Assembly (NCBI GenBank): GCA_052390575.1
Contig: JBQTGU010000061.1
Coordinates: 48,025-112,024 of the forward strand
Reading direction: 5' to 3'
Origin: Actinomycetota bacterium
GTDB taxonomy: Bacteria > Actinomycetota > Acidimicrobiia > IMCC26256 > JACDBD01
Length of the DNA stretch: 64,000 nucleotides
The number at the start of each line of letters is the position of its first letter. Position 1 is the first letter of the stretch. Below the pieces are notes generated by a model. It did not search any database and was not told the origin of the DNA. It saw only the letters and a list, made by a program, of their open reading frames with translations. Both the position numbers and the translations under genes were made by a program. Positions 1-21,680 of this stretch are shown one piece after another.

Positions 1-681
1 GCGCTCGCTCTGGATGCGCAGCAGGTACACCACGTCGGTTTCGGGCAGGAGCGGGTCGAGGTCGTGACTGACCGCGCAGTTCCAGCCCGCGAGCGACTCC
101 GGCATCAGCGTGGGCGGGCCCACCAGCGTGACCTCGGCGCCGACCGCGACGAGCGCCTTCACCGTGCTGCGGGCGACCCGCGAGTGACGCACGTCGCCGA
201 CCACGGCGACGCGCAGACCGTCGAAGGTGGTGGTGACCAGCCGCCGGCGCAGGGTGAGCAGGTCGAGCAGCGCCTGGGTCGGGTGCTCGTGGCGGCCGTC
301 GCCGGCGTTGATGATGCTGGCGTCGATCCACCCCGCGATGCGGTGCGGGGCGCCCGCGGCCCGGTGCCGGACCACGACCGCGTCGACACCGAGCGCGGCG
401 ATCGTCTGCACGGTGTCGCGCAGGCTCTCCCCCTTCTTCACCGACGAGCTGCTGATCGCGAAGGTCATCGTGTCGGCCGACAGGCGCTTGGCCGCGGTCT
501 CGAACGACAGTCGCGTGCGGGTGGATTCCTCGTAGAAGAGGGATGCCACCGTCTTGCCCCGCAGCGCCGGCACCTTCGGGATCTCGCGCTGGGTCACCTC
601 CACGAAGGAGGAGGAGAGCTCGAGCATCTCGTCGATGCCCGACCGGCCCAGGTCGTCGACCGAGAGCAGGTGGCGGCTCAT
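1..681 (-). CDS. pyrB: Aspartate carbamoyltransferase catalytic subunit (runs off window start)
   Basis: Manual translation from ATG 681 (ATGA overlap with pyrR stop): [11 protein letters not shown]...[14 protein letters not shown], plus HPTQALLD motif. Confidence 0.95.
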
Positions 682-17478: not shown

Positions 17479-18837
17479 TCACTCCTGCTCGCGTCGCTCG
17501 CCCTGCTCGTTCTGCTCGCCCTGGACCCGTGACCGGCGCCGCTCGAGCAGCTCGGCGACCCCGGCCTCGGCACCCTGCGCGCTCGGTTGGTAGTAGCTGC
17601 GCCCCGCCACCTCGTCGGGCCGGTACTCCTGGGGGACCCAGCCGGCCGGCGCGTCGTGCGGGTACACGTAGCCCTCCCCGTGCCCGAGCTTGCGGGCGCC
17701 AGGGTAATGGGAGTCGCGCAGGTGGACGGGGACCGCGCCCGCGGGCTGGTCGCGGACGTCTTCGAACGCCGACCCGAGCCCGGCCACGACCGAGTTCGAC
17801 TTGGGGCTGAGCGCCAAGTGGATGACGGCCTGGGCGAGGTTGAGCCCGGCTTCGGGCATGCCCACGAACTCGACCGCCCGGGCCGCCGCGTCCGCCACTA
17901 GCAGCGCCTGGGGATCGGCCATCCCGACGTCCTCGGAGGCCAGGATCACCAGTCGCCGGGCGACCAGGCGGGGGTCCTCGCCCGCCTCGAGCATGCGGGC
18001 GAGCCAGTACAGCCCGGCGTCGGGATCGGAGCCGCGGATGCTCTTGATGAAGGCCGACAGCACGTCGTAGTGCTCGTCGTCGCCGTAGCGCAGCGCCCGC
18101 ATGGCGAGGGCGGCCTCGGCGTCGGCGAGGGTGATGCGGTCGCGCCCGGCCTCGGCGGCGAGGCCGTGGGCGACTTCGAGCGACGTGAGCGCATGGCGGG
18201 CGTCGCCCTCGGACCGGTCGACGAGGTGCTCGAGCGCGTCGGGATCGATCTCGAGGCGCTCGTCGCCGAGCCCCCGGTCGGTGTCCTCGAGCGCGAGCAC
18301 GATCAGGCCACGGATGTCGTCGACGGTCAGCGGTTCGAGGCGGAACAACGAGGACCGCGAGAGCAGCGGCGCGGTGAGCGAGAAGAACGGGTTCTCCGTC
18401 GTCGCGCCGATAAGGACGAGCAGGCCCTCCTCGACGTGCGGCAGGAGCGCGTCCTGCTGGGTCTTGTTGAACCGGTGGACCTCGTCGAGGAACAGGATCG
18501 TGCCCTGCCCGTGCTCGCCGAGGCGGCCACGGGCCCGCTCGACGATCTCGCGCACGTCCTTGACGCCGGCCGAGACCGCCGAGAGCGGCTCGAACGCCTT
18601 GGCCGTGACGCCCGCGATCAGCCGGGCGATGGTCGTCTTGCCCGTGCCCGGCGGGCCCCAGAGGATGACCGACGACAGGCGGTCGGACTCGATCAGCACC
18701 CGGAGTGGCCGTCCCTTGCCGAGCAGGTGCTCCTGCCCGACGACTTCGTCGAGCGAGCGCGGTCGGATCCGCGCCGCCAGCGGCGCCCGCCGCCGGAGCC
18801 GCTCCTCGAGCGCGCTGGCAAACAGGTCGTCGGGCAT
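17479..18837 (-). CDS. rarA: Replication-associated recombination protein A (AAA+)
   Basis: PLAARIRP, GPPGTGKT, DEVHRF and SAFIKSIRGSD motifs. Confidence 0.96.
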   Translation of the reverse strand: MPDDLFASALEERLRRRAPLAARIRPRSLDEVVGQEHLLGKGRPLRVLIESDRLSSVILWGPPGTGKTTIARLIAGVTAKAFEPLSAVSAGVKDVREIVERARGRLGEHGQGTILFLDEVHRFNKTQQDALLPHVEEGLLVLIGATTENPFFSLTAPLLSRSSLFRLEPLTVDDIRGLIVLALEDTDRGLGDERLEIDPDALEHLVDRSEGDARHALTSLEVAHGLAAEAGRDRITLADAEAALAMRALRYGDDEHYDVLSAFIKSIRGSDPDAGLYWLARMLEAGEDPRLVARRLVILASEDVGMADPQALLVADAAARAVEFVGMPEAGLNLAQAVIHLALSPKSNSVVAGLGSAFEDVRDQPAGAVPVHLRDSHYPGARKLGHGEGYVYPHDAPAGWVPQEYRPDEVAGRSYYQPSAQGAEAGVAELLERRRSRVQGEQNEQGERREQE

Positions 18838-18862
18838 CAACTCAGCCTTCCACTCCGGGCCC

Positions 18863-18906
18863 GTTGTCACACGATGTGCGGTTAGGACGCCCGGTCACGT
18901 GACAAC
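18863..18906. repeat. 44-bp palindromic element, left
   Basis: GTTGTCAC-N28-GTGACAAC; contains the DUF559 gene stop codon. Confidence 0.85.
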
Positions 18907-19805
18907 GCAGCGAGATGCTCGGAGACGGTCGCAGCGATCTCGGCGTTCGTCCAGCTCGAAGTGAATCTGATCGGACGCCATCCCGCAGCTACGAGGTCGT
19001 TCTGGCGGGCGCGATCGCGGTCGAACGCGGTCCGGGTTCCGTGGGCGACCCAACCGTCGACTTCGATGGCGAGCTTCAGCTCGGGGTAGGCCAGATCGAT
19101 CCGACACCGGCGGCTACCCAGGCGCACCCAATACTGGGGCACCGGCTCCGGCAACCCGGCCTCGACGATCGCCCGCATGACGCGCATCTCGAGCTCGCTC
19201 TCGCCCGGGTCGTAGCCGGCGAGGCGGCGCACCAACACAATCTGAACGCGCTTCGGCCGGCGGCCCGGAGCCGGCGGCAGACCGGCGACGCACCGACGCA
19301 GATCGTCGAGACGGAGCAATCCTTGGCGTGTCCCGTGATCGGTAGCGGCTCCGAGAGCGGGGACGCTCATACGCCCGGATACATCGGCGAGTGTGCGCGC
19401 GACCGAGGTACACGGGATTCGATGGTGGACGGCATGCTCCAGCGCGAGGAATGCCACCGTTCTGTGGGAGCAGACCCCCGCGAGGCGAGCGTGGTGGGGC
19501 CGAGCCGTAGTCAGCTCGAGGCCGGCGTCGCGCTCGAAGCCTGGAAGTCCCCAGAGCGCAGCTGCCGTGGCATGCGAGGCAACGGCTCCGGGACCAACCG
19601 CGAGCACCGCCGCGAGCACGGCCTGCTCCCAGGTCGGCGGCGCCCCGGCCACCGCGAAGACGTCGTAACGGATGCGGACGAGCACCCCCGACCGGACGCA
19701 CCATCGGATCTGCTCCGTGCTAAAGCCGGCGTCCAGCAGCTGGCGACGCGTGACCAGGGTGTGTTGGCGCGCCGCCAACCGGGCGATCTCGGCATGCAGA
19801 CTCAT
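18882..19805 (-). CDS. AbiEi-like wHTH domain plus DUF559 (Vsr-like) endonuclease domain protein
   Basis: ARQH.LVTRRQL N-terminus; ASHATAAALWGL and TSVARTLAD; ES.LE...RIDLAYPELKLAIEVDG..H...DRAR C-terminus. Confidence 0.88.
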   Translation of the reverse strand: MSLHAEIARLAARQHTLVTRRQLLDAGFSTEQIRWCVRSGVLVRIRYDVFAVAGAPPTWEQAVLAAVLAVGPGAVASHATAAALWGLPGFERDAGLELTTARPHHARLAGVCSHRTVAFLALEHAVHHRIPCTSVARTLADVSGRMSVPALGAATDHGTRQGLLRLDDLRRCVAGLPPAPGRRPKRVQIVLVRRLAGYDPGESELEMRVMRAIVEAGLPEPVPQYWVRLGSRRCRIDLAYPELKLAIEVDGWVAHGTRTAFDRDRARQNDLVAAGWRPIRFTSSWTNAEIAATVSEHLAALSRDRAS

Positions 19806-19879
19806 GGCGCGCATGATGCCTGCCGGGTGAGACATCAACGATGGTCCCCCCGCCTGGCGGGGTGACCATCCCGTTGGCG

Positions 19880-19923
19880 GTTGTCACAGGAAGCGGGGTC
19901 CTGGCACCAGATCGTGTGACAAC
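19880..19923. repeat. 44-bp palindromic element, right (inverted relative to left)
   Basis: GTTGTCAC-N28-GTGACAAC; its reverse complement matches the left copy at 33/44 positions. Confidence 0.85.
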
Positions 19924-19925
19924 AC

Positions 19926-21680
19926 TCAGGATTTGGGCTTCTTCACCACCTGGAGGCCGAGCTCCTTCAGCTGCGCCGGGTCGAGTGGGCTCGGTGCGCC
20001 GGTGAGCGGGTCGGCGCCCGACTGGGTCTTCGGGAACGCCACCACCTCGCGGATGTTCTCCTCGCCCGCGAGGACGGCGGCGAACCGGTCGACGCCGATC
20101 GCGAAGCCCGCGTGCGGCGGCGCGCCGTAGCGGAACGCGTCGAGCAGGAAGCCGAACCTCGCCTGGGCGTCCTCCGGGGTGATCCCGAGCGCGGTGAACA
20201 CTTGCTGTTGCATGTCGGCGCGGTGGATTCGGACGCTCCCCGACCCCAGCTCCCAGCCGTTGAGCACCAGGTCGTAAGACTGGGACCGCACCGCGAGGAG
20301 CTCCTCCCCCTGCCCCGACTCGAGCAGCCCGAGATCGTCCGGGTGGGGCATCGTGAACGGGTGGTGGGCCGGGATCGGCCGCCCCTCGTCGTCGAGCCCC
20401 TCGAAGAGGGGAAAGTCGACCACCCACAGGAACCGCAGCCCGCCATCGTCCACCGGCGGGCGCGCCAGGTCGAGCCGCAACCTGCCCAACACCCGGTTCG
20501 CGATCGCCCGCTCCCCCGCGACCAACAGCAACAAGTCACCCGCCCCGGCACCGAGCGCGTCTACCAGGCCGAGTTGCTCCGCCTCGGAGAGGAACTTCGC
20601 CACTGGCGAGTCCAGCGCGCCCCGATCTCCGACCCGCATCCATACCAGACCGGCCGCGCCCAGCTGCTTGGCCCGGTCGATCAGCGCGTCGAGCCGCGCC
20701 CGTGCGACATCACCCTCGCCCGGCACCCGGATGCCCTTCACCGCCGCCGCCTGGAACGCGCGGAACTCGGTGGCGGCGAACACCTCGCCGACGTCCACGA
20801 GCTCGAGTCCGAAGCGCACGTCGGGCTTGTCGGTGCCGTAGCGGTCCATGGCGTCGAGCCACGTGATCCGGTCGGCCGCGCCGGGGAGCACGCCGGTGGC
20901 CTCCTCTGCTGCCGTCAGGGCGGCGTCGGTCACGACGGCCATGACGTCCTCGCCGTCGGCGAAGCTCATCTCGACGTCCCATTGCATGAACTCGAATTGA
21001 CGGTCAGCGCGCGGATCCTCGTCCCGGAGGCACCGGGCGATCTGGTAGTACCGATCGAGGCCGCCGACCATCAGCAGCTGCTTGAACAACTGCGGGCTCT
21101 GGGGCAACGCGTAGAACGATCCCGGCTGGAGGCGCGACGGGACCACGAAGTCGCGGGCTCCCTCGGGCGTGGACGCGATCAACATCGGCGTCTCGATCTC
21201 GACGAAGCCGTGACCGTCCATCACCCGGCGCAACACCCGGTTCACGACCGCCCGCTGGCGCAGGTTGCGCTGGAGCCGGTCACCGCGCAGGTCGAGGTAG
21301 CGGTACCGGTAGCGCAGCAGCTCGTCGGCCTCCCGGCGGCCGCCGATGGGGATCGGGGGCGCCTCGGCCTCGCTCAGCACATCGAGCCGCTGCGCGGCCA
21401 CTTCGATCTCGCCCGTCGGCAGTTCCTCGTTGACGGTGCCTTCCGGTCGGGGCCGTACCTCGCCCTCGACCCGTACGACGAACTCGCTGCGCACCCGGTG
21501 CACGTCCCCGGCCCCGGGCGCGTCCGGATCGACCACCACCTGCACGACACCGCCGGCATCCCGCACGTCGAGGAACACCACCCCACCGTGGTCGCGCCGG
21601 GTCGCGACCCAACCGCACACCGCCACGGTCTCGCCCGCGTGGTCGCGCCGCAGCTCACCGGCGCGGTGGGTGCGCATCAT
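19926..21680 (-). CDS. aspS: Aspartate--tRNA ligase (likely non-discriminating)
   Basis: RDHGG, LPQSPQLFKQ and GAPPH.G motifs; His in RDHGG and Gly in RPEG are typical of the non-discriminating type. Confidence 0.97.
   Translation of the reverse strand: MMRTHRAGELRRDHAGETVAVCGWVATRRDHGGVVFLDVRDAGGVVQVVVDPDAPGAGDVHRVRSEFVVRVEGEVRPRPEGTVNEELPTGEIEVAAQRLDVLSEAEAPPIPIGGRREADELLRYRYRYLDLRGDRLQRNLRQRAVVNRVLRRVMDGHGFVEIETPMLIASTPEGARDFVVPSRLQPGSFYALPQSPQLFKQLLMVGGLDRYYQIARCLRDEDPRADRQFEFMQWDVEMSFADGEDVMAVVTDAALTAAEEATGVLPGAADRITWLDAMDRYGTDKPDVRFGLELVDVGEVFAATEFRAFQAAAVKGIRVPGEGDVARARLDALIDRAKQLGAAGLVWMRVGDRGALDSPVAKFLSEAEQLGLVDALGAGAGDLLLLVAGERAIANRVLGRLRLDLARPPVDDGGLRFLWVVDFPLFEGLDDEGRPIPAHHPFTMPHPDDLGLLESGQGEELLAVRSQSYDLVLNGWELGSGSVRIHRADMQQQVFTALGITPEDAQARFGFLLDAFRYGAPPHAGFAIGVDRFAAVLAGEENIREVVAFPKTQSGADPLTGAPSPLDPAQLKELGLQVVKKPKS

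Follow-up and report, generated by a model that had tools for sequence, protein, structure and literature searches.

A putative AbiEi-like/Vsr-type nuclease gene and its palindromes between aspS and rarA in Acidimicrobiia: probably a REP/RAYT-like unit built on another nuclease

Between the aspS and rarA genes of an acidimicrobial genome, in a 64,000-nucleotide stretch of DNA (the window) from Actinomycetota bacterium assembly GCA_052390575.1 (contig JBQTGU010000061.1, positions 48,025 to 112,024), lies a gene whose predicted product joins an AbiEi-like winged helix-turn-helix (wHTH) protein to a nuclease of the PD-(D/E)xK fold, with a short palindrome on either side. The gene and its two palindromes probably constitute a unit like that of the repetitive extragenic palindromes (REPs) and REP-associated tyrosine transposases (RAYTs), i.e. 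a 'REPtron'-like unit, built here on a PD-(D/E)xK nuclease. Each paralogue has its own pair of hairpin-forming palindromes, the two members of a pair evolve in concert with their stems preserved, the palindrome type is also dispersed as solo copies at the 3' ends of genes in many genomes, and the dispersed type matches the type that flanks the resident gene. As judged from comparison of sequences, the association of gene and repeat is well supported. An arrangement of this kind, with a nuclease class other than that of the RAYTs, had been predicted from the letters of the window, and all the comparative tests speak in its favour; what sets limits to it is the genome under study itself, where the gene has no solo copies, the hairpins are weak and the gene is not a recent arrival.

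The contrast between two related genomes, G014 and G016, is the cleanest piece of evidence (genomes are denoted here by G numbers; G000 is the genome under study, 3.68 Mb in 175 contigs, 70.7% G+C and 98.7% complete). The gene between aspS and rarA is flanked by a palindrome of the GTTGTCAC type in G000, G016 and G015, and by one of the GTTGGGTC type in G014, G010, G030, G011 and G008. Sites of the GTTGTCAC and GTTGGGTC types number 10/0 in G016, 0/8 in G014, 0/10 in G010 and 0/4 in G030; thus the dispersed type follows the type of the resident gene. Across 41 genomes, the pattern GTTGTCAC-N24-34-GTGACAAC is found at 2 sites in G000, 10 in G016, 10 in G015, 6 in G006, 6 in G020, 4 in G019, 2 each in G011 and G022, and 1 each in G017 and G009, with none in the other 31; a reversed-pattern control gives 1 site in total. 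The counterpart GTTGGGTC..GACCCAAC has 10 sites in G010, 8 in G014, 5 in G015, 4 in G030, 3 each in G007 and G011, 17 in G003 and 1-2 in nine further genomes, and is absent from G016, G000 and 23 others. These pattern counts need exact 8-bp arms, and the metagenome-assembled genomes (MAGs) are 59-99% complete, several of them 59-87%; G003 and G009 are unpublished and their counts are not relied on. The solo copies expected by the original prediction do therefore exist, at 10 sites each in G015 and G016 for this palindrome type, but not in G000.

Paralogues of the gene provide further cases. The palindrome of paralogue C76 in G000 (TTCTCGAGGC..GCCTCGAGAA) occurs at 14 further loci of that genome, of which 6 are between convergent genes, 6 between tandem genes, 1 between divergent genes and the remaining 1 of ambiguous placement; the C80 type has about 3 further loci. 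The L067 type is present at 7 further loci in G034 and the L051 type at 10 in G026, none of them at another paralogue. Over the same 41 genomes, the C76-type pattern CTCGAGGC-N24-34-GCCTCGAG is found 16 times in G000, 15 in G007, 4 in G001 and 23 in the unpublished G003; all other genomes have 0-2, and those among the matches listed look like coding sequence. The C76 protein clade (E<=1e-60) is likewise found only in G000, G001, G003, G007 and G037. The inner stem of this palindrome type is GTCCGG/CCGGAC in G007 and G003 versus mostly GTGCGG/CCGCAC in G000 and G001, a compensated difference that is common to most copies listed per genome.

Are solo copies gained and lost? Comparison of G000 with G001, a genome of the same genus, shows that they are polymorphic. 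One G001 copy is absent at the orthologous site of G000, its filled form lying between convergent stop codons with CTAG on both sides; one G000 copy is cleanly absent in G001 (47 bp), a second is reduced there to the end of one arm (a stub), and the two genomes share one further solo. Where synteny would place paralogue C76 (G001:C85:40903-40971, L097), G001 has no gene and a different single palindrome, CTTGTGTTG..CAACACGAG. The flanks of the C111 and C80 sites are rearranged or not found in G001, and those of a C41 solo match weakly on different contigs and were not used.

How widespread is the flank pair? G000 has three paralogues at 49, 33 and 30% identity, each between its own, distinct palindrome pair as seen by eye, and homologues are present in 35 of the 41 related genomes with at most 10 matches per genome. 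From 78 loci (77 homologue loci in relatives and the G000 locus), 74 remained after 4 were dropped for short flanks. The upstream flank (-300..+45) was compared with the downstream flank (-90..+250) by best local alignment in both orientations, against a null of 1500 mismatched upstream/downstream pairs with a 99th percentile score of 32 and a maximum of 55. A pair above the 99th percentile is present in 60 of the 74 loci and above the null maximum in 43. Among named Acidimicrobiia, Acidimicrobiales and Ilumatobacteraceae MAGs, 21 of 24 usable loci score above 32 (6 of 30 were dropped). In a phylum-wide sample the gene family occurs in 61 of 151 Actinomycetota genomes, and 19 of 38 usable loci (2 of 40 dropped) exceed 32. 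That homologues would be flanked by palindromes of their own, as the prediction had it, is thus borne out in all three sets. As a background control, for which the upstream window was slightly enlarged, 66 of 1781 open reading frames (ORFs) of G000 score above 32; of the 40 highest-scoring ones, which were inspected, most represent coding or tandem-gene similarity.

The median distance from the end of the upstream unit to the extrapolated start of the gene is 16 bp; that from the first position of the downstream unit to the end of the stop codon is 11 bp. The two flanks align better in direct orientation at 33 loci and in inverted orientation at 27. With unit lengths of about 41-72 bp among family members, the fixed spacer originally proposed holds only loosely. 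Within each lineage the upstream and downstream copies are more alike than either is to the copies of orthologues in other lineages. In three loci, L173 (G073:C19), L009 (G030) and L176 (G172), the shared flank extends from 72 to about 236 bp, with tandem sub-repeats beside the palindrome. Several of the phylum-wide loci that have no pair show an upstream TCGCGA-type motif instead; in loci L154-L161 of family f33, a common TTCGCGATCGAGTCGC-like motif with TCGCGA half-sites, a candidate operator, is found about 60-110 bp upstream of the genes. Broken genes are common in the family: in the table of relatives a single in-frame stop is present in at least 7 entries, and some 9 loci are divided into 2-3 adjacent matches. 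Breakage at such a frequency is expected of a selfish gene.

Strong units form two-tier hairpins, with folding energies of -25 and -21.6 kcal/mol (z -7.3 and -6.0) for the two copies of the C76 pair and a z of -5.9 for the L067 unit. Of 55 double changes in the 52 upstream/downstream pairs that have no alignment gap, 35 preserve pairing, versus 7 of 27 in a control slid by 2, and at least one compensatory change is seen in 17 loci. These compensated double changes indicate that each copy is kept self-complementary even where the two copies differ. A simple correlation between protein and palindrome is ruled out, the Spearman coefficient being 0.05 for 1711 pairs and -0.03 for the 77 pairs from the same genome; the co-variation that was to be looked for is seen only above about 60% protein identity. 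Palindromes diverge much faster than proteins.

The aspS-rarA junction was compared in 21 relatives. The gene is intact in 5 (G016, G026, G029, G014 and G032), cut by a contig end in 2 (G007 and G010) and split into two overlapping matches in 1 (G030). Decayed remnants are found in 4, with both palindromes kept in G015, G011 and G008 and one in G006. G002 (L026) has no gene and a single solo-like palindrome, GAGCAGTTGA..TCAACTGCTC; in G027 aspS and rarA are not neighbours. The remaining 7 (G001, G012, G013, G025, G028, G031 and G033) are the empty junctions that the prediction called for. In G001 the aspS stop overlaps the rarA start, and in G012 and G013 the spacers of 25-31 bp resemble the stretch between the rarA-side palindrome and rarA in filled loci. 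No palindrome was noted by eye at the empty junctions of G001, G012 and G013, and G028 has a short inverted repeat. Palindrome-free empty spacers that resemble the rarA-proximal stretch imply that the inserted block spans the region from one outer palindrome end to the other, and the alignments indicate that gene and palindromes were added between aspS and rarA as one block. Presence/absence polymorphism with decayed copies at a conserved locus is the pattern seen with homing genes. The locus is occupied across several families and much of the order, which argues that the G000 copy is not a recent arrival.

Host and gene trees group G014 and G016 differently. A RarA tree of 8 genomes places G014 next to G016 as its sister (100/100), both on very short branches. 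In the protein tree, six syntenic copies form one clade with modest support (88/59), within which the G014 copy groups with that of G026 (96/91) and the G016 copy with those of G000 and G007 (95/80). The G014 and G016 proteins are 54% identical; by blastn, the upstream palindrome and the wHTH-coding part cannot be aligned between the two, and aspS aligns at 84%. Domain by domain, the syntenic orthologues differ most in the wHTH (residues 1-58), where identity is 32-47%; the figures are 57-64% for the middle domain and 49-68% for the nuclease. Either the cassette would have been replaced at the aspS-rarA locus, or its DNA-reading end may evolve very fast together with the palindromes.

The features of the G000 locus are as follows (positions are those of the window).

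18863..18906, no strand assigned: downstream palindrome, GTTGTCAC-N28-GTGACAAC; it holds the last 7 sense codons of the gene and the TAA stop, and ends 25 bp before the rarA ATG (18837).
19880..19923, no strand assigned: upstream palindrome, GTTGTCAC-N28-GTGACAAC; it follows the aspS stop by 2 bp and precedes the likely ATG (19805) by 75 bp.
18882..19838, minus strand: gene for an AbiEi-like protein, made up of a wHTH and an AbiEi C-domain, with a Vsr/DUF559-type PD-(D/E)xK nuclease; ORF from TTG 19838, likely ATG 19805, 307 aa.
19926..21680, minus strand: aspS (aspartyl-tRNA synthetase), upstream host neighbour; Pfam tRNA-synt_2, GAD and anticodon-binding OB domains; syntenic in relatives.
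17479..18837, minus strand: rarA/mgsA (AAA+ recombination-associated ATPase), downstream host neighbour; Pfam MgsA_C, AAA_assoc_2 and AAA; a rarA match is present in 24 of 25 relatives at 47-95% identity.

Two sites of equal length at these positions had been reported from the letters of the window, and the details given for them stand: alignment of the left site with the reverse complement of the right gives 33/44 identical positions with the outer 13 bp perfect and AGGAC common to both, the right site ends 2 bp from the aspS stop (19926-19928) and the stop codon of the gene (18882-18884, minus strand) falls within the left site. The inverted arrangement is less secure, as the direct orientation gives 31/44, so that the relative orientation of the sites is ambiguous. 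The inner 28 positions match at 17 (binomial P ~7e-4 at p=0.3). With up to 2 mismatches, GTTGTCAC-N28-GTGACAAC has 2 matches in the window versus 0.00 expected (100 shuffles), and exact copies in the whole genome are the flanking pair only; the shuffles, the family flank null and the site alignment together rule out a chance origin of the pair. In the flank test the locus scores 33, among the weakest positives. Describing these sites as 44-bp palindromes holds for their outer part: self-complementarity is confined to the outer 8-9 bp of each, the upstream site forming a weak hairpin with a 9-bp outer stem, and single-strand folding is weak. The upstream palindrome is of the same type and in the same position as at the orthologous loci of G016 and G015. 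The absence of a target duplication, also reported from the letters, is upheld at this locus: a CTGAGT hexamer adjoins the aspS-side site and a second lies 17 bp past the rarA-side site, hence not an adjacent duplication. The region 18600-20100 has no Rfam match at E<=1, no sigma-70 promoter or U-tailed terminator was found at the locus, and a tblastn search of 72,556 plasmids gave no relative at E<=1e-10.

Several other palindromic sequences of G000 may be mentioned here. A lone 44-bp GTTGGCAC-N28-GTGCCAAC at G000:C47:20407-20450, in a short gap between ORF-like stretches, equals the flanking sites in length, carries a compensated arm change and matches the right-hand site at about 25/44 positions by hand count. 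On contig C137 (about 300-450, reverse strand), two tandem copies of a short palindromic unit, GATGTCGCGGGACATCG, follow the 3' end of a tRNA gene; G001 has a C76-type solo after the corresponding tRNA, and the C137 sequence is possibly the edge of an integrated element. Two repeat cores, GCGGCGCAGGTACCCTGCGCCGC with 42 copies (up to 3 mismatches) and GCGCCGGGTATCCCGGCGC with 26 (up to 2), lie within longer GAGCGAGCG..CGCTCGCTC arms, e.g. at C2:25912, C2:28378, C15:9576 and C15:10533, and several copies of these families end directly before an ATG with a purine-rich stretch.

What kind of protein does the gene encode? Alignments of homologues start near residue 10-18, which makes ATG 19805 the likely start. 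Pfam AbiEi_4 matches residues 17-57 (33.4 bits, cut-off 25) and MTES_1575 residues 218-295 (38.5 bits, cut-off 38.2), with DUF559 at 19.4 bits, narrowly below its cut-off of 20.6; PADLOC AbiEi models match residues 5-186 (E 3e-25). A profile of 76 homologues matches, over residues ~201-304, the DUF559 structure PDB 3hrl (E 9e-8) and the catalytic domain of I-Bth0305I, PDB 3r3p (E 4e-6). The AlphaFold (AF2) model is confident (pLDDT 94.6, pTM 0.88); in Foldseek comparisons its N-terminal two thirds resemble AbiEi 6y8q (E 2e-5) and Rv2827c 1zel (E 1e-4), and its C-terminal domain 3r3p (TM 0.65) and Vsr 1cw0. All 12 positions that are at least 90% conserved in the 76 homologues are present here, among them D237, E248 and H255 in the block RxDxAYP...AIExDG...H. 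Together the Pfam, PADLOC, profile and Foldseek matches indicate that an entire AbiEi-like DNA-binding protein is joined to a Vsr-type nuclease, with the residues of the conserved catalytic block complete; such an enzyme is plausible, and its nuclease domain is homologous to that of the homing endonuclease I-Bth0305I. The related nuclease domain also shows weak matches, far below cut-offs, to parts of the anti-phage proteins Hhe and ProA. As had been noted from the letters, no AbiEii nucleotidyltransferase is adjacent, the neighbours being aspS and rarA, and a PF01797 search of G000 gave no match to a Y1/HUH transposase.

How might such a unit operate? The fast-evolving wHTH would recognize the outer arms of its own palindromes, and the nuclease would cut or nick at or in the hairpin or cruciform. 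Host repair and recombination could then homogenize the two flanking copies and copy or remove solos, and the cassette as a whole may be exchanged or lost at a conserved locus, much like a free-standing homing-endonuclease gene. This chain of arm reading, hairpin cutting and copying by host repair is a proposed mechanism. In G000 the system looks run down or quiescent: the gene is intact, but solos are absent and the only two palindromes have decayed inner stems.

Several findings weigh against a REP/RAYT-like unit. In G000 itself both flanking sites fold weakly as single strands (z -0.6 to -2.3), and the type of this gene, like that of C111, is found nowhere else in the genome. Palindrome similarity tracks the protein only above about 60% identity (n=10; mean palindrome score 24.5 versus a background of about 12.7), and two genes of one genome, L065 and L077, have unrelated palindromes despite 69% protein identity. 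Both types (10/5) are present in G015, where the gene has an internal deletion, and solos outlast the decayed gene there (10) and in G006 (6), where only a remnant is left. Target duplications are inconsistent, CTAG being present in 1 of 3 polymorphic solos and a possible TGG in 1, with the third a stub. Other abundant palindromic repeats in G000 were not seen beside any family member. Half of the phylum sample has no pair, with family f33 (8 of 8 loci) and 3 further loci among the negatives, and related genomes are not independent samples.

Could the gene be a self-regulated, stand-alone toxin-antitoxin-like or defence gene? The AbiEi part would then repress its own promoter through the upstream palindrome, the downstream palindrome would be a terminator without U residues, local gene conversion would keep the two alike and the dispersed copies would be terminators. 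AbiEi proteins bind inverted repeats in their own promoters, the similarity to AbiEi is full length in both the PADLOC and the structural comparisons, and the nuclease has its weak likeness to Hhe and ProA; the f33 loci have an upstream TCGCGA-type motif without a flank pair, and 12 of the 14 C76-type solos have convergent or tandem genes on either side, where a terminator might be expected. Such a gene offers no reason, however, why a terminator should copy an operator in 60 of 74 loci, leaves unexplained both the switch of the dispersed type with the gene allele between G016 and G014 and the clean, palindrome-free empty junctions, and has no AbiEii partner beside it. It is an unlikely explanation, if one to be kept in mind.

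Alternatively, the palindromes might be independent REP-like or terminator repeats that are moved by something else, the cassette preferring to insert in or beside them with duplication of the target. The unrelated palindromes of L065/L077, the repeat families of G000 that have no such gene, the solos that outlast decayed genes in G015 and G006 and the different palindrome at the G001 site syntenic to C76 would all fit. Yet the empty junctions of G001, G012 and G013 offer no palindrome to enter, the flank copies are more alike within a lineage than between orthologues even though several families have the locus occupied, the search of G000 gave no Y1/HUH transposase and the dispersed types match the alleles in G014 and G016; insertion beside pre-existing repeats is accordingly improbable. 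There is very little likelihood that the gene is an ordinary free-standing homing-endonuclease gene parked between conserved genes, with hairpins that merely insulate transcription and have no part in spread. The match to I-Bth0305I, the intact, decayed and empty states at one locus and the grouping of the G014 allele with that of G026 while G014 and G016 are sister hosts are as such a gene would have them, but neither the dispersed cognate solos nor the paired flank repeats are predicted by it. An integron attC origin was dropped, as the arm order is opposite to that of attC, there are no arrays and the neighbours are housekeeping genes; no IntI search was made.

The REP/RAYT-like unit favoured here shares much with its model, as far as the parts of the REP/RAYT literature consulted describe the latter: a nuclease gene with a copy of a hairpin repeat on each side, cognate copies dispersed in intergenic 3' regions, several paralogues possible per genome, each with its own repeat type, and mostly vertical inheritance at low gene copy number. 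It differs in the enzyme, a wHTH joined to a Vsr-like PD-(D/E)xK domain rather than the IS200-like HUH/Y1 tyrosine transposase of RAYTs; in its units, which are single long hairpins of about 45-55 bp, many of them divided into inner and outer stems; and in copy numbers, which are in the tens, not hundreds. A GTAG tag was not noticed, no scan having been made for it. Dispersal within its own genome is lacking for the G000 gene, but is seen for the G016 orthologue (10 sites) and for C76 in G000 (14 further loci).

The Vsr-like (EDxHD) homing endonucleases such as I-Bth0305I resemble the present protein in having a homologous catalytic domain joined to an N-terminal DNA-binding region, and the intact, decayed and empty states at one conserved locus are another likeness. 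I-Bth0305I resides in an intron (the PDB entry 3r3p is named 'mobile intron protein'), whereas the gene described here is free-standing between genes, is flanked by repeats with dispersed copies and has an AbiEi-like N-terminus. The AbiEi antitoxins of type IV AbiE systems (6y8q; Rv2827c, 1zel) recognize inverted repeats, and the N-terminal ~190 residues match their models and structures; unlike them, the present protein has a fused nuclease domain, no adjacent AbiEii, and repeats on both sides of its gene and elsewhere in the genome. With DUF559/MTES_1575 proteins (e.g. PDB 3hrl) it shares the C-terminal nuclease fold and motifs; no function or repeat association was described for these in the literature searched.

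In the open literature searched, in part at the level of excerpts, there is no description of AbiEi- or DUF559-type nuclease genes flanked by palindromes; subscription journals and supplements lay outside that search, so a prior description is possible. To our knowledge, REP-type repeats have so far been tied to one enzyme class, the HUH/Y1 RAYTs, and for many repeat families no driver is known. According to the portions consulted of PMC3733652, in which a term search gives no mention of Actinobacteria, GTAG REPs are associated with RAYTs and CGTC REPs are without a dedicated transposase. Vsr, DUF559 and an intron homing endonuclease are placed in one clade in PMC3424549.

It is tempting to go one step further and to regard these genes as a second, independent invention of the partnership between a nuclease and a cognate hairpin repeat, in which AbiEi-wHTH/Vsr-like nucleases would each maintain and spread a private hairpin family of about 50 bp, without a HUH transposase, by structure-directed cutting and host repair, the cassettes being swapped at fixed sites like homing genes. 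This broader proposal is tentative, and confidence in it falls a little short of even. Because each protein adjoins its candidate DNA site, the system is directly testable. If true, it would represent a second route to nuclease-repeat partnerships, one that employs a restriction-fold nuclease and a winged-helix reader, and the CGTC REPs, as characterized in the portions of PMC3733652 referred to above, are an example of the orphan families to which the same idea might apply. It would also provide a function for a large unexplained family (AbiEi_4 plus DUF559/MTES_1575) that is now annotated as antitoxin-like, and many 'DUF559 / AbiEi-domain' genes would then drive repeat families rather than being antitoxins or repair enzymes.

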